DNA from: Candidatus Nitrosopumilus koreensis AR1
GTDB lineage: Archaea; Thermoproteota; Nitrososphaeria; Nitrososphaerales; Nitrosopumilaceae
Assembly: GCF_000299365.1 (NCBI RefSeq)
Contig: NC_018655.1
Location: 1,230,001-1,262,000 of the forward strand
Direction: 5' to 3'
Length of the DNA: 32,000 nucleotides
In this document: positions 16,831 through 32,000 of the stretch, in pieces
Position numbering within the stretch: position 1 is the first letter of the stretch
Layout: each line of letters opens with the position of its first letter
Made by a program: the position numbers and the translations under genes
Notes under the pieces: model-generated
What the model was told of the DNA's origin: nothing
The model's database searches: none
Seen by the model: the letters and a program-made list of their open reading frames with translations, nothing else

Positions 16831-17631
16831 TTAGGATATTTTGAATAATTTTTTTGCATGTTTATACATGAAACCATCCCTGAACTCACTTTTGATTTTC
16901 AATTTTGCAACAAAATTAAGATAAGAATCCATTGTACTTATTGGCCAATCAGTACCGTATAGAAGATAACGAGGTTCACCTGCATAGTTGATAAGCTCTG
17001 CAACTTTTTCCTTTATCATTTTTTCAAAATAATGATCAAACGAACCTATTACCAATCCAGAAACGTCTGCATACACATTCTTATTTTTGTAGAGAACTTC
17101 TTGGGCATCTTGAATCCAAGGATTTCCTAAATGACACATAACAATTTTTAGTTCAGGATTGTCTACTGCAACCTCATCTAGGTTAAGTGGTCTTGCAAAA
17201 CGCAACTTTCCCTTTTCAGAATAAGTATCTCCCGTATGAAACATCACAGGAATGCCAAACTCTATGCATGTATCATAGACTTTTTGGTAACGCTCGTCAT
17301 ACGGATAATAATGCTCATATCCAGAATAAATCTTCATGGCTTTGATTTTACCGTCTTTTATCCATTGCCGATACTTTCGCAAGTCATCATCTGTATGGTT
17401 GTCAATGGTAAATCCTGCTGCAATCCCTAAATTGTCATATTTTTGAATGGCGTCAATGATCTGTTTTGTTGATGGACGTTCAGAATTGACTTTGTAAGAA
17501 GACAGTATTATGGCATAATCTACATTATTGTTGGTCATCTCAGTTTGAAGTGCGTTTAAACGATCTTCCAAGTTTGGAACATTCTGAAGTAGTTCGTATT
17601 GATTTATGTGAACGTGGCAATCAATGATCAT
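16831..17631 (-). CDS. Metal-dependent TIM-barrel amidohydrolase (amidohydrolase_2-like)
   Basis: N-terminal IDCHVH metal motif, later FHTGD, CHLGNPW and GTDWP. Confidence 0.75.
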   Translation of the reverse strand: MIIDCHVHINQYELLQNVPNLEDRLNALQTEMTNNNVDYAIILSSYKVNSERPSTKQIIDAIQKYDNLGIAAGFTIDNHTDDDLRKYRQWIKDGKIKAMKIYSGYEHYYPYDERYQKVYDTCIEFGIPVMFHTGDTYSEKGKLRFARPLNLDEVAVDNPELKIVMCHLGNPWIQDAQEVLYKNKNVYADVSGLVIGSFDHYFEKMIKEKVAELINYAGEPRYLLYGTDWPISTMDSYLNFVAKLKIKSEFRDGFMYKHAKKLFKIS

Positions 17632-18268
17632 TGTCTACAAAATTGGGGTTTTTCCATTCAATAAAAGTTGCATAGTTTAGAGACCTAGAATCTTTGATGT
17701 AATTTGGCAGAATTTTGATAAATCTGAACCCATTTCTTAATTGGAATGATAAAACAGGTTCTCGTATTTCATGGCGTTTGACCTTTTTGACATAATCAAT
17801 CGGAGTCAATGATTCTGCATGTTCACAGTAATTGAAGATTCTTCCGCCTGCAATAATCCTTTTTAGTCCTAATTTTATTGCAAGATCCTTTCGGGCATTA
17901 TACAATTTTGTGGCAATTCCCAATCGTCTAAAATCAGGATGAGTTAATACCTCTGCTCCATAAAGAGTATCTCCTTTCGGATCATGATTTTTAAACATGC
18001 TATCTCCACAGACTTCTCTCCACGAATGTTCTTTGTATTCAGGATTTAATGTGATTATCAAACTACTAGACGAACCAACTATCATGTCTTTGTATTCTGC
18101 TACAATCTGCCCCTCAGGAAATTTGTTTATATGCTCTTTGAGGTGCTTGGGTTTCCAATAGACCCCTTCAGCTGCCATGTAAGGAAAGGCAACTTTTTCT
18201 AATTCAATAATTTTTGAGATATCCTCCAAATCCATTTTACGGACAGTTACATAGTTTTTAGTATTCAT
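17621..18268 (-). CDS. GNAT-family N-acetyltransferase
   Basis: Acetyl-CoA motif A region (HPDFRRLGIATKLY). Overlaps the downstream amidohydrolase by 11 nt. Confidence 0.7.
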   Translation of the reverse strand: MNTKNYVTVRKMDLEDISKIIELEKVAFPYMAAEGVYWKPKHLKEHINKFPEGQIVAEYKDMIVGSSSSLIITLNPEYKEHSWREVCGDSMFKNHDPKGDTLYGAEVLTHPDFRRLGIATKLYNARKDLAIKLGLKRIIAGGRIFNYCEHAESLTPIDYVKKVKRHEIREPVLSFQLRNGFRFIKILPNYIKDSRSLNYATFIEWKNPNFVDNDH

Positions 18269-18405
18269 GTTATTTTTAGCAATTTTATAGTATTTTTTTA
18301 CAAATAAAAGAATTCAGAGAATTGGTTGAATGTGTATGGGATTTGATCTCAGGGAATTAGACTAGTTTGAACATTTTTGTTTTATCTTTATTATGCAAAG
18401 ATATG

Positions 18406-18567
18406 TCATGATTCCTTGTGTTGAACAACCCAGTCTTTGATTGCCATGTCTGTGCGATGTTTCTGACATCTGACATGAGGACATGGAATCAATCTAGTGC
18501 ATTCTGGCTCTTCACATTTTCTATATGATCCTGGAATGTTGGTTCCTTTAGGAGAAATTAATGTCAT
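18406..18567 (-). CDS. Cys/His-rich miniprotein (53 aa)
   Basis: My own translation: MTLISPKGTNIPGSYRKCEEPECTRLIPCPHVRCQKHRTDMAIKDWVVQHKES. It starts 1 nt after the upstream miniprotein stop and is last in a five-gene string. Confidence 0.5.
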   Translation of the reverse strand: MTLISPKGTNIPGSYRKCEEPECTRLIPCPHVRCQKHRTDMAIKDWVVQHKES

Positions 18568-18568
18568 G

Positions 18569-18691
18569 TTAATTTTTTGACCGTTTAGAACTGCTCTTTT
18601 TCAAATGGGTTTTTTCGTGTTTGCGTACTTCATCAAACGTGTATGATGTTCCAATCCAATGAAAATCGCATTGACTGCATCGATACTTCAT
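18569..18691 (-). CDS. C2H2-like zinc-finger miniprotein (40 aa), MKYxCxxC...HEKTH family
   Basis: MKYRCSQCDFHWIGTSYTFDEVRKHEKTHLKKSSSKRSKN. Paralogs at 18784-18891, 27405-27632 and 31094-31210. ATGA overlap with the upstream ORF. Confidence 0.7.
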   Translation of the reverse strand: MKYRCSQCDFHWIGTSYTFDEVRKHEKTHLKKSSSKRSKN

Positions 18692-18783
18692 TTTTTAAGA
18701 CACCTACACCCACAGTCAAACATTCCAGCTTTTTCCATGCATTGTTCATGATGTTCGTTATAGCACTTGTTACAGGTTATCAT
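18688..18783 (-). CDS. Cys-rich miniprotein (31 aa), CNKCYN...MEKAGMF family
   Basis: MITCNKCYNEHHEQCMEKAGMFDCGCRCLKK. About 80 percent identical to 31012-31107, and several of the differences are synonymous. Confidence 0.7.
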   Translation of the reverse strand: MITCNKCYNEHHEQCMEKAGMFDCGCRCLKK

Positions 18784-18891
18784 CTATGAAGACCTCTTTA
18801 CCAGATGAGTCTTTTCATGGAGAAGTAATTGCTGGATGTTATCTTCAGCTGCATCCCAAGTGAAATTGCAGTGTTTGCAACGATATGTCAT
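18784..18891 (-). CDS. C2H2-like zinc-finger miniprotein (35 aa), MKYxCxxC...HEKTH family
   Basis: MTYRCKHCNFTWDAAEDNIQQLLLHEKTHLVKRSS. Its stop abuts the next start. Confidence 0.65.
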   Translation of the reverse strand: MTYRCKHCNFTWDAAEDNIQQLLLHEKTHLVKRSS

Positions 18892-19007
18892 TATTTGGCG
18901 GTACTCTCTGATTTCTTTTTTTCAGATTCTGTGAATGCATTTACATCACTAGCACTTTCGGTTTTACAAGAACCAATTTTCAGTTTTTCAAGTATTTTTT
19001 TAAACAT
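18891..19007 (-). CDS. Miniprotein (38 aa), MFKKIxEKLxxGSCKT family
   Basis: MFKKILEKLKIGSCKTESASDVNAFTESEKKKSESTAK. Paralog at 27289-27404. TAATG stop/start overlap with the next ORF. Confidence 0.6.
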   Translation of the reverse strand: MFKKILEKLKIGSCKTESASDVNAFTESEKKKSESTAK

Positions 19008-19166
19008 ACTTTATCTAGTTTATCTACGATATATACCGGCGTAATTCAACAAAAATTCCAATAATGTTAATCCTTACAAATTTCATAAAAATAAAAAAAG
19101 AGGTTTTGAGAATATCTGAAAATAATCTAGTTTAAAATTAATCAAACGAAACTAATCTAAAATCTT

Positions 19167-19295
19167 CTACTTTCTATGTTTTGGCAAACATTCTTTGCAA
19201 TATACGGGTCTATCCTGTTTTGGTTCGAAAGGAACTTCAGAATCTTTACCACAGTCAGCACATGTACATGGGTACATTTTTCTTTCTTGTGACAT
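19167..19295 (-). CDS. CxxC-x17-CxxC zinc-finger miniprotein (42 aa)
   Basis: MSQERKMYPCTCADCGKDSEVPFEPKQDRPVYCKECLPKHRK. The VPFxPxxxRPVYCxxC pattern is a known small Zn-binding domain. Confidence 0.7.
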   Translation of the reverse strand: MSQERKMYPCTCADCGKDSEVPFEPKQDRPVYCKECLPKHRK

Positions 19296-19630
19296 ACTTT
19301 TGATGAATTTCTTAGCTATAAGAACCGGTGTATTTGGGGGAAAAAGATCAATAATACATCTTGTTCTTATAATAGAAGAAAAGACAAGAGCATGAAAATA
19401 AAAACCACAAATATGACTAATTGTGTGGGTATTTCAAATTTCAACGGGCTTGATTTGATGCAATATGAATTATAGAAAATCTATTCTTTACTATCTTAAC
19501 ATATTGGATTCAGAATATGAAGAAAATAATGAGACCTTATCAGATGATTAAGAAAATTTTTTGATGAGATAAAATATGCCAGCGTAAACTCAAAAATCAA
19601 AGGCAAGAATAGATCACTATGTGATTGGGA

Positions 19631-19675
19631 TTAGGCACAAAAAATAATTGCAAAATAAGCCAGTTATTATATGAT
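19631..19675 (+). promoter_or_regulatory. Putative promoter with upstream TTAGGCACAAAA box and TATA-like TTATTATAT, in front of TFB-1
   Basis: Aligns over about 40 nt with 27232-27270 (TTAGGCACAAAA..TAA..CAAAAT..GCCAGT..ATATAT). The 12-mer core also occurs at 28121. Confidence 0.45.
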
Positions 19676-19688
19676 GAATAACAATTGA

Positions 19689-20633
19689 TTGCGGAATGAT
19701 TTTTTGGTTTTAGAAGTTATCAAGAGCGACTCTTTCTGCAATCGTTGTGGAAAAAATAGTGTGATTTCAGATAATGAGACAGGGGAAAGATTTTGTGATA
19801 AATGTGGTTTTGTAATTAGAGAAACATTACAATCATCAGGCCCAGAATGGAGGTCGTTTGCAAAAGAAGGAGGTACTGATCCAACCAGAACAGGAGCACC
19901 AACGTCGCTTACGATGCATGACAGAGGACTGTCCACAGTTATTAGTCAAAGTAACAGAGATGCTACTGGTAAGCCACTTTCAACATCTATGAAAAGTACC
20001 ATTGAAAGACTGCGAACTTGGGATAGCAGAAGTAAAGTAACTTCATCTGCAGATAAAAATCTCAGACAGGCACTTGGTCAGTTATCTGTACTTAAAGACA
20101 AACTTTCACTTTCTGATTCTGTAAATGAAAAAGCATCATACATTTACAGAAAAGCATTAGAAAATGGACTAGTAAAAGGCCGCTCCATATCAGCATTAAT
20201 TGCAGCATCAATATATGCAGCATGCAGAGATACTGAAACTCCTAGAACTCTAAAAGATGTTGCCGATGCAGGTAACATTAAGAAAAAAGATATTTCCAGA
20301 TGTTATAGAATATTGCATTATGAATTGGAACTCAAGATGCCTGTTGTAAATCCAATTCAATGTATTGCAAGAATTTCAAGTAAATTACGAATAACAGAAA
20401 AATCAAAGCGCTATGCAATCAAAGTACTTCAAGTTGCTCAAGAACATGAAGAAAGTGCTGGAAAAGATCCTATGGGTATTGCTGCAGCTGCATTATACCT
20501 AGCATGTGTCAAAAACAATGAATATGTAACTCAACGTGATGTTGCAGAAGCATCAAATGTTACCGAAGTCACAATAAGAAATCGATACAAAGGTCTAAGA
20601 TTAGACCAAGATACAGAATTACAGGTAAAATAG
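19689..20633 (+). CDS. tfb: Transcription initiation factor B (TFB), paralog 1
   Basis: Zn-ribbon CNRCG...CDKCG, B-reader/linker, and two cyclin-fold repeats. No ATG lies upstream of the ribbon, so the start is TTG at 19689 or 19704. Confidence 0.92.
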   Translation: MRNDFLVLEVIKSDSFCNRCGKNSVISDNETGERFCDKCGFVIRETLQSSGPEWRSFAKEGGTDPTRTGAPTSLTMHDRGLSTVISQSNRDATGKPLSTSMKSTIERLRTWDSRSKVTSSADKNLRQALGQLSVLKDKLSLSDSVNEKASYIYRKALENGLVKGRSISALIAASIYAACRDTETPRTLKDVADAGNIKKKDISRCYRILHYELELKMPVVNPIQCIARISSKLRITEKSKRYAIKVLQVAQEHEESAGKDPMGIAAAALYLACVKNNEYVTQRDVAEASNVTEVTIRNRYKGLRLDQDTELQVK

Positions 20634-20635
20634 AT

Positions 20636-21214
<579 letters not shown>

Positions 21215-24865: not shown

Positions 24866-25295
24866 AGTTTTATCATTAATCTACCTGATTGAAAATACAA
24901 TCATTATGAGTCTGGGTCATTTTTATGGTTCCCAATGACAATCGCAATTACATCCCTTTTGGCAATGAACTCTTTTACAATCAGAACATGTTTTTTGATA
25001 ATGGGATGGTATTGTGTTCACAATATTGATAGTTGTTTCATCCTAATTAACCTACAATTAAGGAAGATCTGCAAGTAAAACAGAAGTAATTACCATATCG
25101 TAGTGGTGTAAGTTTGGGAATATGCATAAAAGTACTGAATTAACTACTCAGTTACGTATACCAATTGGCAAGAAATCATCTGCATCTTATATGTTAGTAC
25201 GGCCTCTTAATGTATGACAAAAAATTCATTGCCAAAACAACAAAGTAAATACAACTATCAATCAACTAACCAATTCTTGTATGGTGGAAACTAAA

Positions 25296-25646: not shown

Positions 25647-26576
25647 CTAATTGATTGTTGAAAACAAACCCAACTTTGTTTTAAATTCACGAATTCTATT
25701 TCTTATTGAAACTGTACTGGTGTTTGCAGCTTCGGCAACTTGGGTTTGGGATTTTAGTTCTCCAGTAATCACACATGCTGCATAAATTACAGATGCTGCC
25801 AAAATTTCCGGATTTTTACCAACCGTGATTCCTGCATCTTGGGCTACAGTTAAAATTTGTGTTGCTTTGCGAATTGTTTTTTCAGATAATTCAAGTTTAC
25901 TGGTAATCTTAGAAATTAACTTTATTGGATTTACTACATTTACTGTAAATCCCAATTCTTTAAACAATATGCGATAAGCCCGAGAGATCTCTTTTCTTTT
26001 AATCACAAATTGAATGGCAATTTCTGTTAGAGATCTATCATGTTCAAGATCCTTGCATGCCGCATACAGGCATGCTGCTGCAACCGATTTTACGGTTCTG
26101 CCTCGAATAAGATTTCTCTTTATTGCCTTTCTATAAAACAGAGATGCTCGTTCAATTATAGTGTCAGATAGGCCTAATTTTGATTGTACTTTGTCAAATT
26201 CCACAAGTGCAACCCTAAGATTTTTGTCTGCCGAGTTTTTTGTTTGTGACCTACTATCCCATTTTCGTAGTCTTCCAAATATCTGAACAGTTTTTACAGG
26301 TAGAGGTTTTCCAACTGAATCTCGATTCTGTGCACCTATGATTGTGTTTAGTCCTTTGTCATGCATTTTAAGTGTCAACCCAGGACCAGTTCTTGTGTTA
26401 TCAGATGTACTTGAAATAAATCTACGATCCGTCCCTCTGTATTCAGCATTTTCTGAAATTACAAATCCACAACTTGAACAAACAGTTTCTCCAAGAATCT
26501 CATCAGTTACAAATCCAGAAGCATTACAGTAATTACAAAAAATTTTTGCTTTTTCAACTGTTGTAGTTAATGTCAA
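25647..26576 (-). CDS. tfb: Transcription initiation factor B (TFB), paralog 2 (divergent)
   Basis: Zn-ribbon CNYC...CSSCG and two cyclin-fold repeats. Clearly more divergent from TFB-1 and TFB-3 than those two are from each other. Confidence 0.92.
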   Translation of the reverse strand: MTLTTTVEKAKIFCNYCNASGFVTDEILGETVCSSCGFVISENAEYRGTDRRFISSTSDNTRTGPGLTLKMHDKGLNTIIGAQNRDSVGKPLPVKTVQIFGRLRKWDSRSQTKNSADKNLRVALVEFDKVQSKLGLSDTIIERASLFYRKAIKRNLIRGRTVKSVAAACLYAACKDLEHDRSLTEIAIQFVIKRKEISRAYRILFKELGFTVNVVNPIKLISKITSKLELSEKTIRKATQILTVAQDAGITVGKNPEILAASVIYAACVITGELKSQTQVAEAANTSTVSIRNRIREFKTKLGLFSTIN

Positions 26577-26829: not shown

Positions 26830-27012
26830 TTAAAGTTCATGAGATATGTACTCTACATCATCCTCATCAGATAATGCATCATGAAATTTTTGAAATATTG
26901 AATCATCCATTTTAGATAGAAATAACATAAATTCTAATTCCAATACTTTCAAACGATTCATTTCTGCTAATTCTTTTTCCATTATTTTTGATACGATTAA
27001 TTGTTGATTCAT
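26830..27012 (-). CDS. Small helical protein, EMNRLKxLELEF family
   Basis: 60-aa ORF. EKELAEMNRLKVLELEFMLFLSKMDDSIFQKFHDAL aligns with the N-terminal half of 30674-30928. Confidence 0.6.
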   Translation of the reverse strand: MNQQLIVSKIMEKELAEMNRLKVLELEFMLFLSKMDDSIFQKFHDALSDEDDVEYISHEL

Positions 27013-27231: not shown

Positions 27232-27270
27232 TTAGGCACAAAATAACAAAATCCAGCCAGTATATATCAT
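27232..27270 (+). promoter_or_regulatory. Putative promoter with TTAGGCACAAAA box and TATATAT, in front of miniprotein cluster B
   Basis: Aligns with 19631-19675. Lies 10-20 nt upstream of the ATGs at 27280 and 27289. Confidence 0.45.
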
Positions 27271-27288: not shown

Positions 27289-27404
27289 ATGTTCAAAAAA
27301 TAATTGAAAAACTAAGGTTTGGGTCTTGTAAGACAATGCCTTCTAAAGATGCAGATTCATTCAAAGAAGCTCAGAAAAACAACAAAGAGGATTTTAAAAA
27401 ATAA
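27289..27404 (+). pseudogene. MFKKIxEKLxxGSCKT-family miniprotein, out of frame because of an A6 run (A7 would restore it)
   Basis: As given, ATG TTC AAA AAA TAA stops after 4 codons. With one more A at 27295-27300 it reads MFKKIIEKLRFGSCKTMPSKDADSFKEAQKNNKEDFKK, ending directly before the ATG at 27405, the next miniprotein start. Paralog of 18891-19007. Confidence 0.5.
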
Positions 27405-27632
27405 ATGAAATATCAATGCAAAACATGTAACTTTCATTGGGAAGGCACTTCACAAACTTTTGACGAGGTACGTGATCATGAAAAAACTCATTTAAAAAAT
27501 AAAACTACTGTTCGTTGTAAAGTTTGTAATGCATCAAAGAGTATGATTGATGTAGAGCATAATTCAGATGAAAAATGGGAGTGTCAAAATTGTGGGAACA
27601 TACTTGATATGCAAGGTCTAATTAGTTCATAG
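27405..27632 (+). CDS. C2H2-like finger (MKYxCxxC...HEKTH family) fused to a C-terminal CxxC...CxxC Zn-ribbon
   Basis: 75-aa ORF MKYQCKTCNFHWEGTSQTFDEVRDHEKTHLKNKTTVRCKVCNAS...WECQNCGNILD. Confidence 0.75.
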   Translation: MKYQCKTCNFHWEGTSQTFDEVRDHEKTHLKNKTTVRCKVCNASKSMIDVEHNSDEKWECQNCGNILDMQGLISS

Positions 27633-27709: not shown

Positions 27710-27805
27710 ATGTCAAATCAACTATATTGCCAAGTATGCCATAAACTCAAATTCACCAAGTTTGATAAACAACAAAAATGCGAGTGTAAAACAGGTAAAA
27801 ATTAA
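27710..27805 (+). CDS. Cys-rich miniprotein (31 aa)
   Basis: MSNQLYCQVCHKLKFTKFDKQQKCECKTGKN. Confidence 0.35.
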   Translation: MSNQLYCQVCHKLKFTKFDKQQKCECKTGKN

Positions 27806-28120
27806 ATCATTTTTTGACTATTTCCATAACAGTTACTTTTCAGTCCACCAATGATGTTTCTCTTGGATGTTGTGATGTAAAAGCATATGTAAGATTTTTT
27901 TAATATTTTTGAAAACTTTGAAATTCATTAATTGAGTATTTCCTTTTTCCACACATTGCATGCAGGACATCTATTTGTGATTTTTTCTCCTAATTTTTTC
28001 AAGAATACATTTCCACAATTATCACAAGATCTTAGATTATCAGTTGTTATCAGGTTATTACTACGTCTTTCTTACTTAAGTACTGGATCATTTTTCAAAC
28101 AAGAATCAATTAGAATACTG

Positions 28121-28132
28121 TTAGGCACAAAA
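28121..28132 (+). promoter_or_regulatory. Third copy of the TTAGGCACAAAA box
   Basis: Exact 12-mer on the same strand, about 117 nt upstream of the PEFG-CTERM protein gene. Confidence 0.3.
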
Positions 28133-29138: not shown

Positions 29139-29414
29139 TTAACGTTTAGATTTTTTGGCCTTACGTTTAGTAGTCTTTGCTGCTTTCTTAGTAGTTCGTT
29201 TTGCTTTAGTAGCTGCTTTCTTTGCTGTACGTTTAGTAGTTCGTTTTGCTTTAGTAGCTGCTTTCTTTGCTGTACGTTTAGTAGTTCGTTTTGCTTTAGT
29301 AGCTGCTTTCTTTGCTGTACGTTTAGTAGTTCGTTTTGCTTTAGTAGCTGCTTTCTTTGCTGTACGTTTTACTTTTTTTGCAGTTTTTTTGATAGCTTTT
29401 TTGGCTGTTGCCAT
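29139..29414 (-). CDS. Lys/Ala/Thr-rich basic repeat protein (histone H1/Hc1-like composition)
   Basis: 91 aa, four perfect 15-aa units KRTAKKAATKAKRTT, about 45 percent Lys+Arg. The antisense ORF (29155-29442) is a shadow. Confidence 0.7.
   Translation of the reverse strand: MATAKKAIKKTAKKVKRTAKKAATKAKRTTKRTAKKAATKAKRTTKRTAKKAATKAKRTTKRTAKKAATKAKRTTKKAAKTTKRKAKKSKR
29188..29369. repeat. Perfect 45-bp tandem repeat, about 4 copies, inside the Lys-rich gene
   Basis: TAGTAGTTCG recurs at 29189, 29234, 29279 and 29324, and the units are identical at every base. The flanks are degenerate copies. Confidence 0.9.
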
Positions 29415-29742: not shown

Positions 29743-30663
29743 TTAAGATTCTAACTTGAAATTTGGCTGTTTTTTTAATCCTTTGTACCTATTTCTTATG
29801 GTCACTTCTGTTACTCCTGCCGCCTCGGCAAGATCCCGTTGAGTAATAGAGCCACCATGTTTCAAACAAGCAATGTATAATGCAGTTGCAGCAAGCCCCA
29901 TAGGGTCTTTTCCAGCAGATTCTTTGTTATTCTGAGCTTCTTGAAGTACTTTGATTGCATGTCGTTTGATTTTTTCAGATAGTTCCAATTTGCTTGAGAT
30001 TCTCGATATGCATTGAATTGAATTTACAACAGGCATCTTGAGTTCCAATTCATGATGCAATAATCTGTAACATCGAGCAATATCTTTACGTTTAACATTT
30101 GCAGCATCTGCAACATCTTTTAGAGTTCTAGGAGTTTCAGTATCTCTGCATGCTGCATATATTGATGCAGCAATCATTGCAGAAATAGATCTTCCACGAA
30201 CTAGTTTTTTCTCTAATGCTTTTCTATACAAATATGCAGCTTTTTCAAGAACATTTGTAGAAAGTGCAATCTTGTCTTTTATTCTAGTTAATTCACCGAG
30301 TGCTTGTCTGAGATTTCTATCTTGAGGTTCATGAGCTTGGCTTCTGCTATCCCAAGTCCGTAATCGTTCAATGGTGCTTTTCATAGATGTTGATAGTGGC
30401 TTGCCAGTAGCATCCTTGTTTATTGGATTAATTACAGTAGATAGCCCCATATCATGTATCAAAAGTGATGAGGGTGCTCCAGTTCTTGCGGGATTTGCCC
30501 CACTATCTGTCTGAAATGCCCTCCATTCTGGACCTGACTCATTTGATTTTTCAGAAACAACATATCCACATTTACCACAAAACTGTTCTCCAGTAACATT
30601 ATCAGTCTGCATGGAATTTTTTCCACAGCGTAGACAGTTAGAATCTGTAATTGAGACCACCAT
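29743..30663 (-). CDS. tfb: Transcription initiation factor B (TFB), paralog 3 (close to paralog 1)
   Basis: Zn-ribbon CLRCG...CGKCG and two cyclin-fold repeats. Long identical blocks with TFB-1 (GKPLSTSMKSTIERLRTWDSRS, IAASIYAACRDTETPRTLKDVADA). Confidence 0.92.
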   Translation of the reverse strand: MVVSITDSNCLRCGKNSMQTDNVTGEQFCGKCGYVVSEKSNESGPEWRAFQTDSGANPARTGAPSSLLIHDMGLSTVINPINKDATGKPLSTSMKSTIERLRTWDSRSQAHEPQDRNLRQALGELTRIKDKIALSTNVLEKAAYLYRKALEKKLVRGRSISAMIAASIYAACRDTETPRTLKDVADAANVKRKDIARCYRLLHHELELKMPVVNSIQCISRISSKLELSEKIKRHAIKVLQEAQNNKESAGKDPMGLAATALYIACLKHGGSITQRDLAEAAGVTEVTIRNRYKGLKKQPNFKLES

Positions 30664-30673
30664 GAAAGGTGCT

Positions 30674-30928
30674 TTATGCTGCCACCTTTTTTATTGGGAT
30701 TTTAAGTGATGAAACATTTCTAATTTTTTCATCTTGTGATTCTAATTTTGAGTCAGATTGTGTATTGTCAATATCTGCATTCTCAAAGATTATATTTTCA
30801 TTCGTTAATGCCGCACGAAATTTTTGAGACATTGTTTCATCCATTCGGGTTTTAAAAAACAAGAATTCTAATTCTAATCTTTTCAGCCTATTCATTTCAG
30901 ATAATTCTTCTTCAATTCTTTTTGTCAT
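30674..30928 (-). CDS. Small protein: EMNRLKxLELEF-family helical N-half plus an Alba-C-terminus-like tail
   Basis: 84-aa ORF ending 10 nt before the TFB-3 start. The N-half aligns with 26830-27012. The tail LESQDEKIRNVSSLKIPIKKV matches the Alba tail LESQDGRKRDVSTIEIPISKKV. Confidence 0.65.
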   Translation of the reverse strand: MTKRIEEELSEMNRLKRLELEFLFFKTRMDETMSQKFRAALTNENIIFENADIDNTQSDSKLESQDEKIRNVSSLKIPIKKVAA

Positions 30929-31011: not shown

Positions 31012-31107
31012 TCATTTTTTTAAACAATCACACCCACAAGAAAACATTCCAGCTTTTTCCATGCATTGATCATGATGCCCATTATAGCATTTGTTACAAA
31101 TCACCAT
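31012..31107 (-). CDS. Cys-rich miniprotein (31 aa), CNKCYN...MEKAGMF family
   Basis: MVICNKCYNGHHDQCMEKAGMFSCGCDCLKK. Overlaps the upstream miniprotein by 14 nt. Confidence 0.7.
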   Translation of the reverse strand: MVICNKCYNGHHDQCMEKAGMFSCGCDCLKK

Positions 31108-31210
31108 TAGAACTCACTTTTTTATGGGTTTTTTCGTGTTCCAACACTTTGGAAAATGTATCAGAAAATCCATCCCATTGGAATTTACATTTTTGACAAT
31201 TGTATTTCAT
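31094..31210 (-). CDS. C2H2-like zinc-finger miniprotein (38 aa), MKYxCxxC...HEKTH family
   Basis: MKYNCQKCKFQWDGFSDTFSKVLEHEKTHKKVSSNGDL. The start codon directly abuts the Alba stop (0-nt spacer). Confidence 0.7.
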   Translation of the reverse strand: MKYNCQKCKFQWDGFSDTFSKVLEHEKTHKKVSSNGDL

Positions 31211-31492
31211 CTATTTTACCTTCTTAGAAATTGGAATTTCTATGGTGGAGACATCTCTTTTTCGCCCATCTTGAGATTCTAGTGATTCAGAATTGATTTT
31301 GACACATCCTACTTCAAATGCGTCTGTTTTTTTTAAGAGGACCTGAGTGACATCTACTGCAAGTCCAATACTCATACCTCTGGCCTTAATGACTATGGAA
31401 TCTAATGAAGATAGTTGGATTATTGCAGAGGTGACATATGACATTAACGGTTTTTTTCCGATAAAAATTGTATCATGTGGTTTATCTAACAT
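31211..31492 (-). CDS. albA: Chromatin/RNA-binding protein Alba
   Basis: 93 aa. IFIGKKPLMSYVTSAIIQL...IVIKARGMSIGLAVDVTQVL... is the canonical Alba pattern. Confidence 0.88.
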   Translation of the reverse strand: MLDKPHDTIFIGKKPLMSYVTSAIIQLSSLDSIVIKARGMSIGLAVDVTQVLLKKTDAFEVGCVKINSESLESQDGRKRDVSTIEIPISKKVK

Positions 31493-31599: not shown

Positions 31600-31986
31600 C
31601 TAATTTTGATGCAAATCAATTATGTCAAATAGATCTTCAGCTCGTTTGATTATTTTTGAAGAACTGGTGTCTTTGTCAGCACTAATCAATACTAGATGAT
31701 TGGTAGTGGGAACACTTATGATCATGACATTTTTCCTTCGTGATGTAATATAGTCAATTGGGCCAAGAATTTCATCTAGTTCTTGTCTCATTCGTAAATC
31801 AAGCATCATTTGCATATAGACCATCTTGATTTTTTCATCATCTAACAATCTTGGAATTCCTGATTTGAATTTGCTTGCTACTGGTCGTCCTAATTTGTTA
31901 ATTACTGCAACATGCCTAATTTCATCCATTTGAACCAGTTTAGCACATGCATTGTCTAATGAACTAATTTTTTCAACTGAATTCAT
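31600..31986 (-). CDS. Conserved hypothetical protein (128 aa), weakly similar to 12706-13066
   Basis: Clean ATG ORF. It shares the pattern IRxVxVxN...G...L...R.E...G..Y...L.IS..D with the frameshifted gene at 12.7 kb. The fold guess (roadblock/LC7-like) is speculative. Confidence 0.55.
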   Translation of the reverse strand: MNSVEKISSLDNACAKLVQMDEIRHVAVINKLGRPVASKFKSGIPRLLDDEKIKMVYMQMMLDLRMRQELDEILGPIDYITSRRKNVMIISVPTTNHLVLISADKDTSSSKIIKRAEDLFDIIDLHQN

Positions 31987-32000
31987 TTTGAATTCATAGT

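Follow-up and report, generated by a model that had tools for sequence, protein, structure and literature searches.

A conserved operon of overlapping microprotein genes with C2H2-like fingers, found near TFB and TBP genes in Nitrosopumilaceae

We describe a five-gene microprotein operon on the minus strand of Candidatus Nitrosopumilus koreensis AR1, at positions 18406-19007 of a 32,000-nucleotide stretch of contig NC_018655.1 that we refer to as the window. Comparison with related genomes shows, at the level of sequence, that its five open reading frames (ORFs) are genuine, co-oriented and tightly coupled microprotein genes of four conserved families, here called L, Z, K and P. The overall reading that we favour, and hold with moderate confidence, is that of a polycistronic microprotein operon with leaderless, coupled expression, in which the Z, K and P products would bind metal and play an accessory role in transcription or chromatin. 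What is new is that the Nitrosopumilaceae have a conserved set of microprotein operons, most of it missing from annotation; single-zinc archaeal microproteins as such are already known from Haloferax.

ORFs of at least 20 amino acids (aa) were listed on the minus strand, and the stretch 18200-19300 was read directly. ORF1, the L gene (19007-18891, 38 aa), is a lysine-rich leader cistron with the pattern MFKKIxEKLKxGSCKT..DVNAFxESEKKK, whose homologues lie directly 5′ of Z genes in about 60 loci. It is followed on the same strand by a Z finger gene (ORF2, 18891-18784, 35 aa), by K (ORF3, 18783-18688, 31 aa), which encodes a Cys6His protein with a weak PHD-like core, by a second Z finger gene (ORF4, 18691-18569, 40 aa) and by P (ORF5, 18567-18406, 53 aa), which encodes a Cys4His2 protein. 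From ORF1 to ORF5 the junctions read TAATG (a 1-nucleotide (nt) overlap), TAG abutting ATG, ATGA (a 4-nt overlap) and TAA-C-ATG (a 1-nt spacer). With junctions of -4 to +1 nt the operon stretch of about 600 nt is fully coding, and the arrangement of the ORFs is far beyond chance. A sequence-only reading of the window had reported five minus-strand ORFs here, joined by TAATG and ATGA overlaps or by spacers of 0-1 nt, and the direct reading and the ORF listing confirm both the coordinates and all four junctions. It had also described all five products as Cys/His miniproteins. This is correct for ORF2 to ORF5, but not for the lysine-rich ORF1, which has a single Cys and no His; L is a separate and very widespread leader-cistron family that defines the module and had been overlooked, as had the conserved promoter with the leaderless mRNA it implies, the linkage to TFB, TBP and Alba genes and the weak PHD-like core of the CNKCYN protein, K.

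The operon is identical in the sibling assembly GCA_000328945.1, where the public annotation calls only the 53-aa ORF5 of the five, and the exact ORF4 sequence has no record in public gene calls. Scans of all five ORFs against Pfam, NCBIfam and PHROGs gave nothing above threshold, and names in the databases are limited to 'hypothetical protein', in line with the earlier remark that these families are poorly characterised. No RNA family was matched by Rfam in positions 17500-20000, and a scan for bacterial-type promoters and terminators returned nothing informative.

The evidence that these are real genes comes from related genomes. One genome per species was scanned, which gave 80 loci, nearly all from Nitrosopumilus, Nitrosarchaeum or unclassified Nitrosopumilaceae, and from these 93 Z, 25 K, 52 L and 10 P genes were recovered. 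A profile of four finger copies had found 19 close relatives in Nitrosopumilus, all without names. There is no stop in the annotated frame in any of the 52 L, 93 Z, 25 K and 10 P sequences; in the shifted-frame control there are 4-19 stops per 100 codons and the ratio of nonsynonymous to synonymous differences (pN/pS) is near 1. The ratio of nonsynonymous to synonymous substitution rates (dN/dS, by NG86) is 0.38 for L, 0.28 for Z, 0.08 for K and 0.14 for P. Synonymous codons alternate at conserved residues, e.g. TGT and TGC for Cys, GAT and GAC for Asp, and CTG, TTG, TTA and CTA for Leu9 of the L family. Between the paralogs of the window synonymous sites are saturated, and dN/dS is 0.16-0.24 where it can be computed.

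Because the frames are kept in related genomes without in-frame stops, and because dN/dS among homologues lies at 0.08-0.38, well below 1, the five ORFs are coding genes; comparison of homologues shows all five frames to be conserved and under purifying selection across the Nitrosopumilaceae. The sequence-only reading had proposed an operon, paralogy and, from synonymous differences between paralogs, selection on the peptides, and these proposals are upheld, the last of them by dN/dS and by the alternating codons. One could object that each ORF is shorter than 60 aa, that four of the five are uncalled in the annotation of the sibling assembly, and that they may simply be chance open frames in AT-rich intergenic DNA. 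Conserved frames, dN/dS below 1, stop-filled shifted frames and hundreds of homologous clusters already refute this idea, and we give it practically no credence.

The two Z genes (ORF2 and ORF4) belong to a narrow family that, by profile comparison and a moderate AlphaFold model, can be described as a classical C2H2 finger into which four residues have been inserted. All 93 Z sequences share M1, Y3, C5, C8, W12, H25, K27 and H29; within the HEKTH motif H25, K27 and H29 are therefore invariant, E26 is kept in 97% and T28 in 85%. The ligand spacing C-x2-C-x16-H-x3-H given by the sequence-only reading is correct, and its view that the HEKTH family is C2H2-like agrees with the profile comparison and with a predicted beta-hairpin and helix. 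When aligned by hhalign to 12 canonical C2H2 fingers, the family scores a probability of 96.5%, with both ligand pairs and both core hydrophobic positions aligned and the 4-residue insertion (GTSY) placed after W12, whereas a control comparison with PHD fingers gives 4.7%. An AlphaFold model (AF2, with the family alignment) reaches a pLDDT of 79, with strands at 2-4 and 11-13 and a helix at 20-39, and its top Foldseek matches in the PDB are C2H2 fingers (ZNF406, the TAX1BP1 UBZ, NDP52 ZF2 and SALL4). On this modelling evidence we infer, with good support, that Z has a zinc-dependent C2H2-type fold. It would fold round one Zn(II) through C5, C8, H25 and H29 as a beta-beta-alpha finger that has the four extra residues and carries a basic tail; the tails are net positive in 82% of members.

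Z shares with the classical finger (zf-C2H2, PF00096; PROSITE PS00028) the Cys2-His2 order, the C-x2-C and H-x3-H pairs, the predicted beta-beta-alpha fold, an aromatic residue two before the first Cys, an aromatic core residue after the knuckle and a hydrophobic residue three before the first His. It differs in being a free-standing protein of 33-45 aa with a single finger rather than an array, in its near-invariant HEKTH and in its place in a polycistronic operon. E26 and K27 of HEKTH are far more conserved than the matching positions in canonical fingers. An exhaustive hidden Markov model (HMM) search of 1.84 billion representatives found only 67 Z clusters, nearly all of 30-126 aa, and reached a canonical multi-C2H2 protein at its margin (E=7e-4). 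Two other assignments were considered. HEKTH resembles the HExxH site of zincins, but Z has 35-40 aa and the catalytic domain more than 100; two Cys complete a four-ligand site, no peptidase of Pfam matches, and this assignment was rejected. There was likewise no ROS_MUCR Pfam match at E<=1, and the globular fold of the Ros/MucR finger takes about 58 aa against the 35-40 aa of Z.

Single fingers that bind DNA are known elsewhere. In the GAGA factor one C2H2 finger with flanking basic regions suffices for sequence-specific DNA binding; the likeness to Z, with its one finger and net positive tail, is an analogy only, as the GAGA factor is a eukaryotic multi-domain protein. A closer comparison is AFV1p06, a crenarchaeal virus protein with a single eukaryote-like finger, disordered basic ends and sub-micromolar DNA binding, which has been proposed as a transcription regulator (Guilliere et al. 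2013, PMC3541406). Going by the descriptions, both are small archaeal single-finger proteins with one or more basic ends, although AFV1p06 is without the fourth His and has neither a leader cistron nor K or P partners. Fingers of its type were found only in Crenarchaeota, Euryarchaeota and their viruses, with no homologue in Thaumarchaeota (PMC3541406). One-domain zinc-finger micro-proteins have also been studied in Haloferax, namely HVO_2753, HVO_0758 and other C(P)XCG proteins, with regulatory or stress phenotypes (PMC6562870, PMC10716476, PMC11241148). Like the families described here they are archaeal, shorter than 70 aa, built on one zinc site and present as many paralogs. Unlike them they are C4 zinc ribbons with C(P)XCG motifs, do not sit in overlapping multi-microprotein operons and have no described linkage to TFB; the C(P)XCG motif occurs in none of the five ORFs. 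A literature search on small, cysteine-rich or zinc-finger proteins in thaumarchaea and ammonia-oxidising archaea found nothing relevant.

The K family is smaller and more cysteine-rich. In 12 aligned sequences C4, C7, H12, C15, M16, M21, C24, C26 and C28 are invariant, and the core reads M-[ILV]-x-C-[ND]-K-C-x4-H-x2-C-[MV]-G, after which comes a late Cys pair. Sub-threshold matches to PHD, PHD_3, PHD_4 and Prok-RING_1 occur in 5-11 of 43 members (best E 0.004), and the best PDB matches are PHD fingers, at a weak E of about 0.2. K shares the C-x2-C-x4-H-x2-C core and the late Cys pair with the PHD finger (PF00628), but departs from its eight-ligand C4HC3 signature in having no first Cys pair, only 31 aa and a CxCxC end. 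The PHD likeness of K is thus a weak lead from sequence and not an assignment. P, judged by its residues, is a third Cys/His family, with the invariant pattern C-x4-C-x5-C-P-H-x2-C-x2-H (C18, C23, C29, H31, C34 and H37), and its profile gave no informative match in a PDB sequence search; neither did such searches with the Z, K and P profiles give anything significant. In both K, with its PHD-like core, and P, the invariant Cys and His residues would serve as metal ligands.

This abundance of ligands raises the question whether the peptides handle metal and do not act on nucleic acids or transcription; they might buffer zinc or copper, serve as metallochaperones or resemble metallothioneins. 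K packs six Cys, one or two His, two invariant Met and a CxCxC motif into 31 aa, P has four Cys and two His, several paralogs occur per genome, and ammonia oxidisers depend heavily on copper. However, Z fits the C2H2 fold by prediction; some of its surface residues are invariant without being ligands, its helix residues are specific to each subfamily, and its tails are basic. L lacks a set of ligands, and the neighbourhoods hold no recurring metal transporter or sensor genes while TFB, TBP and Alba genes do recur. We consider metal handling unlikely.

The L family has the consensus MFKKIIxKLKFGSCKT..DVNAFKESEKKK and comprises 427 protein clusters, all named 'hypothetical' and of a constant 35-38 aa. 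L sits immediately 5′ of most Z genes as the first cistron, and a conserved promoter lies upstream of it. The operon promoter (19046-19028, minus strand) consists of a sequence like the B recognition element (BRE), AATTACGCCGG (19046-19036), and a TATA box, TATATATC (19035-19028), 20 nt before the ATG of ORF1. In an alignment of the 60 nt upstream of 51 L starts there is a conserved AAATTACGCCGG-TATATATC block (CGCCGG-TATATATC), again with the TATA box ending 20 nt before the ATG. The exact promoter match TACGCCGGTATATA is unique in the window; the signature CGCCGGTATATA occurs once in these 32 kb and, in independently fetched loci, only before L genes. A second module in the window has a promoter at 27233-27268 (plus strand), with an upstream element TAGGCACAAAA (27233-27243) and TATATATC (27261-27268), 20 nt before the ATG at 27289. 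The corresponding element TAGGCRYRAA precedes many L genes at 56-57 nt upstream of the ATG, where 23 of its 38 occurrences in 0.9 Mb are found.

The same motif TAGGCACAAAA is seen three times on the plus strand of the window, against 0.24 expected, at 19632-19642, 27233-27243 and 28122-28132. The copy at 27233 precedes an L-like gene and that at 19632 lies 57 nt before the start of a TFB gene at 19689, which suggests shared regulation of this TFB gene and the L-Z modules.

In archaea the centre of the TATA box lies about 26 nt before the transcription start. Since the TATA box stands at a fixed 20 nt from the L ATG, transcription would start on the L AUG or only a few nt away from it and yield a leaderless polycistronic mRNA, a view of the transcript that has good support from the promoter sequences. 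TATA-to-ATG distances of 23-25 nt have been reported for the amo and nirK genes of ammonia-oxidising archaea (PMC4010524). Ribosomes would then load at L and pass from one cistron to the next by termination-reinitiation, and through this coupled translation the peptides would be produced together. The L>Z junctions lie within -4 to +1 nt in 42 of 45 cases. Expression of L and Z as one readthrough or frameshift protein was rejected, as junctions range from -17 to +6 nt, the frame varies and there is no conserved recoding site.

Such a model leaves room for the view that L is a mere translational entry point or regulatory upstream ORF of a leaderless mRNA, with a functionless peptide, and that only the downstream Cys/His proteins matter. 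L indeed comes first among the cistrons in every case, with a constant spacing to the TATA box, its 5′ end is A-rich, its selection is the weakest of the four families (dN/dS 0.38, pooled 0.50, against 0.60 in the +1 frame), and the copy at 27289 is frameshifted with its downstream gene intact. On the other side, MFKKIIxKLK and DVNAFKESEKK are kept as amino acids despite alternating synonymous codons, 52 sequences of 37 codons contain no stop where other frames have 8-11 per 100, an L-Z fusion protein exists, and length is constant at 35-38 aa across the 427 clusters. A low probability, similar to that of metal handling, is what we would give to a functionless L.

The genomic context provides the main hint to function. 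The window holds three TFB genes (19689-20633, 25647-26576 and 29743-30663), a TBP gene (20636-21214), and genes for eIF-1A and Alba, and each of its three Z modules is within about 1 kb of a TFB gene. The order Alba, Z, K, an 84-aa protein (p84) and TFB is kept in five other genomes (loci L072, L074, L075, L077 and L079). A TFB gene lies within 3 kb in 34 of the 80 loci and in 26 of the 48 with full flanks, and a TBP gene in 15 of the 80. TFB genes near the modules have a density of one per 12 kb; a genome of about 1.6 Mb carries 8-11 TFB genes (PMC4084955). TFB and TBP enrichment near Z and L modules is some 12- to 16-fold over expectation. Four L proteins picked solely because they lie on long contigs all had TFIIB and/or TBP genes within about 2 kb. 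The relative orientation of module and TFB gene varies (tandem, convergent or divergent), a variation that favours maintained proximity over a single inherited layout.

Because the modules lie persistently beside TFB, TBP and Alba genes, and because helix residues differ between Z subfamilies, the peptides would most likely bind nucleic acids or the basal machinery and act as accessory factors in, or regulators of, archaeal transcription and chromatin. That the products work with nucleic acids or with the TFB, TBP and Alba machinery is drawn from context only, and we rate it as close to an even prospect, if slightly short of it. A bolder proposal, which we regard as distinctly doubtful, is a system specific to the Nitrosopumilaceae in which stand-alone C2H2-like Z and PHD-like K proteins, with L and P, would be made stoichiometrically from L-led leaderless mRNAs and, paralog by paralog, act as partners or specificity factors for the expanded TFB/TBP set or for Alba chromatin. 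If true, microproteins would add to basal transcription control a layer that has not been described in any archaeon.

A number of observations weigh against the transcription and metal-binding parts of our reading. Z has 16 residues between its second Cys and first His where the classical finger, with its C-x3-[hydrophobic]-x8-H spacing, has 12, and so fails the PROSITE spacing; it also falls below the Pfam threshold, the best scores being 13.7 bits for zf-C2H2_REST and 14 bits for zf-H2C2_5 against a cut-off of 27. Both failures are due to the 4-residue insertion. The Foldseek matches of Z have TM scores of 0.46-0.57 and E >3, which is not significant at such a length, and its acidic helix positions (D20, E21 and E24) and lone finger argue against strong non-specific DNA binding. 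For K, hhalign against eight PHD fingers gives only 40% on the C-x2-C-x4-H-x2-C core (1.7% for a C2H2 control), and its AlphaFold model is poor, with a pLDDT of 55. The K cistron of L010-L012 has lost most of its cysteines (MSICYTYYDESHDQCMRKTSVFDCNYGYLKK) while keeping its position, 31-aa length and overlapping junctions, e.g. at 2909-3004 of L010, and K of N. piranensis (L088, 4910-5017) is an unrecognisable remnant. As K cysteines are lost in some lineages, not every cistron is essential; K may be dispensable, or its frame may be retained only to pass ribosomes onward. The TFB linkage is correlative, and its counts are non-independent, as the loci form orthologous sets; the N. piranensis module has no TFB gene nearby. 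Finally, a search for the N. piranensis accession in the proteomics supplement of Bayer et al. 2019 yielded no match.

The modules might instead be selfish or mobile cargo, either toxin-antitoxin-like pairs or virus-derived genes. Two-gene overlapping operons with a strong promoter of their own, multiple copies and positions that vary between genomes would fit such an origin, as would distant Z-like domains on viral contigs. Four contigs of IMG/VR encode proteins of 81-92 aa whose N-terminus resembles Z (44-48% identity) and whose tail reads CxxCGCxxxH. These genes lie at about 5001-5255 of L084-L087, and L084 also carries a portal protein gene. The CxxCGCxxxH tail is found in the cellular relatives P0102, P0111 and P0122 too, and represents a second architecture of the Z family. 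Against a mobile origin, the viral proteins are only 44-48% identical and differ in architecture, L and K are absent from IMG/VR, and a phage collection gave no relevant match by tblastn. The modules are syntenic with core genes across genera and under strong purifying selection, and no integrase, repeat or tRNA boundary was noticed in the ORF and Pfam listings, which included no dedicated tRNA or repeat scan. We find a mobile origin very unlikely; the sequences place these families among cellular ones with a distant viral offshoot. A precursor cluster for ribosomally synthesised and post-translationally modified peptides (RiPPs) was rejected, as the surroundings show no recurring modifying enzymes. 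Metal buffering, a purely translational L and a selfish element are possible readings, less well supported than the accessory role in transcription and chromatin that we prefer.

The operons matter for several reasons. Ammonia-oxidising Nitrosopumilaceae are among the most abundant cells of the ocean. They encode 8-11 TFB paralogs, and the microprotein operons, being linked on the chromosome to genes for TFB, TBP and Alba, are concrete candidates for tuning promoter choice or chromatin. A dedicated survey of 2013 found no C2H2-type finger in this phylum, and the predicted one described here adds a data point on the origin of eukaryote-type zinc fingers. As to annotation, the standard procedure missed four of five genes in a fully coding stretch of 600 nt, and all 427 L clusters are without names. 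The modular layout, the conserved promoter, the natural fusions and peptides of only 31-53 residues, within reach of chemical synthesis, make the hypothesis directly testable.

The modules occur in several architectures, namely L-Z, L-Z-K, L-Z-Z, L-Z-K-Z-P, and Z-K behind Alba, and the full five-gene order L-Z-K-Z-P recurs in L004 and L010-L012. Natural fusions join L and Z (P0164) or Z and K (P0046) in a single ORF. Within the window the sequence-only reading had pointed to paralogs of four of the five ORFs at 27289-27632 and 31012-31210, and these copies were found. A frameshift in the copy of ORF1 had gone unnoticed: the L-like paralog (27289-27404, plus strand) has a run of six A where seven are needed, a 1-nt deficit, and reads ATGTTCAAAAAATAA, with a stop at codon 5 and the remainder in the +1 frame. 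The cause could be a homopolymer sequencing error, a decaying leader cistron or slippage-dependent expression. It is followed by a 75-aa fusion (27405-27632, plus strand) of a Z finger, in its first 33 residues, and a CxxC...CxxC zinc ribbon. The two halves are separate overlapping genes in the Nitrosarchaeum locus L038, where the operon order is L-Z-ribbon-Z-ribbon. At 31.1 kb, on the minus strand, the order of finger then CNKCYN protein is preserved as claimed: a 38-aa Z paralog (31094-31210), whose ATG abuts the stop codon of the Alba gene (31211-31492), is followed with a 14-nt overlap by a 31-aa K paralog (31012-31107). A sixth Z paralog, MNYNCRKCSFQWEGNSDKIQEILVHEKSHKNRTMNSK, continues past the end of the window and is seen at 31983-32000 (minus strand; 9115-9228 of L001). 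Its stop overlaps, as ATGA, the start of a DUF6659 gene (31600-31986), and paralogs of DUF6659 lie within 3 kb of Z genes in eight other loci.

Other small proteins were noted beside the TFB genes of the window. The 84-aa protein (30674-30928, minus strand) is directly upstream of the TFB gene at 29743-30663, and a 60-aa paralog of it (26830-27012, minus strand; 53% identity over 45 aa) is directly upstream of that at 25647-26576, so that the two form another small family found alongside TFB paralogs. A 91-aa protein (29139-29414, minus strand) with Lys/Ala/Thr-rich repeats (KKAATKAKRTTKRTAKK...) and a histone-tail-like composition lies just downstream of the first of these TFB genes, that at 29743-30663. 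Three more Cys-rich micro-ORFs with homologues conserved in other genomes lie at 24926-25021 (minus strand), 27710-27805 (plus) and 27940-28053 (minus), with the sequences CSDCKRVHCQKGCNCDCHWEP, LYCQVCHKLK..QQKCECK and CDNCGNVF..RCPACNVWKK, respectively; the region from 24.9 to 28.1 kb is an island of zinc-ribbon-like microproteins, mostly missing from annotation. Just upstream of the operon promoter, a 42-aa CxxC-x17-CxxC protein (19167-19295, minus strand) matches zf_Tbcl_2 / TIGR04272 (E 4e-18), and it holds the same position in L010, L012, L014, L020, L032 and L092.

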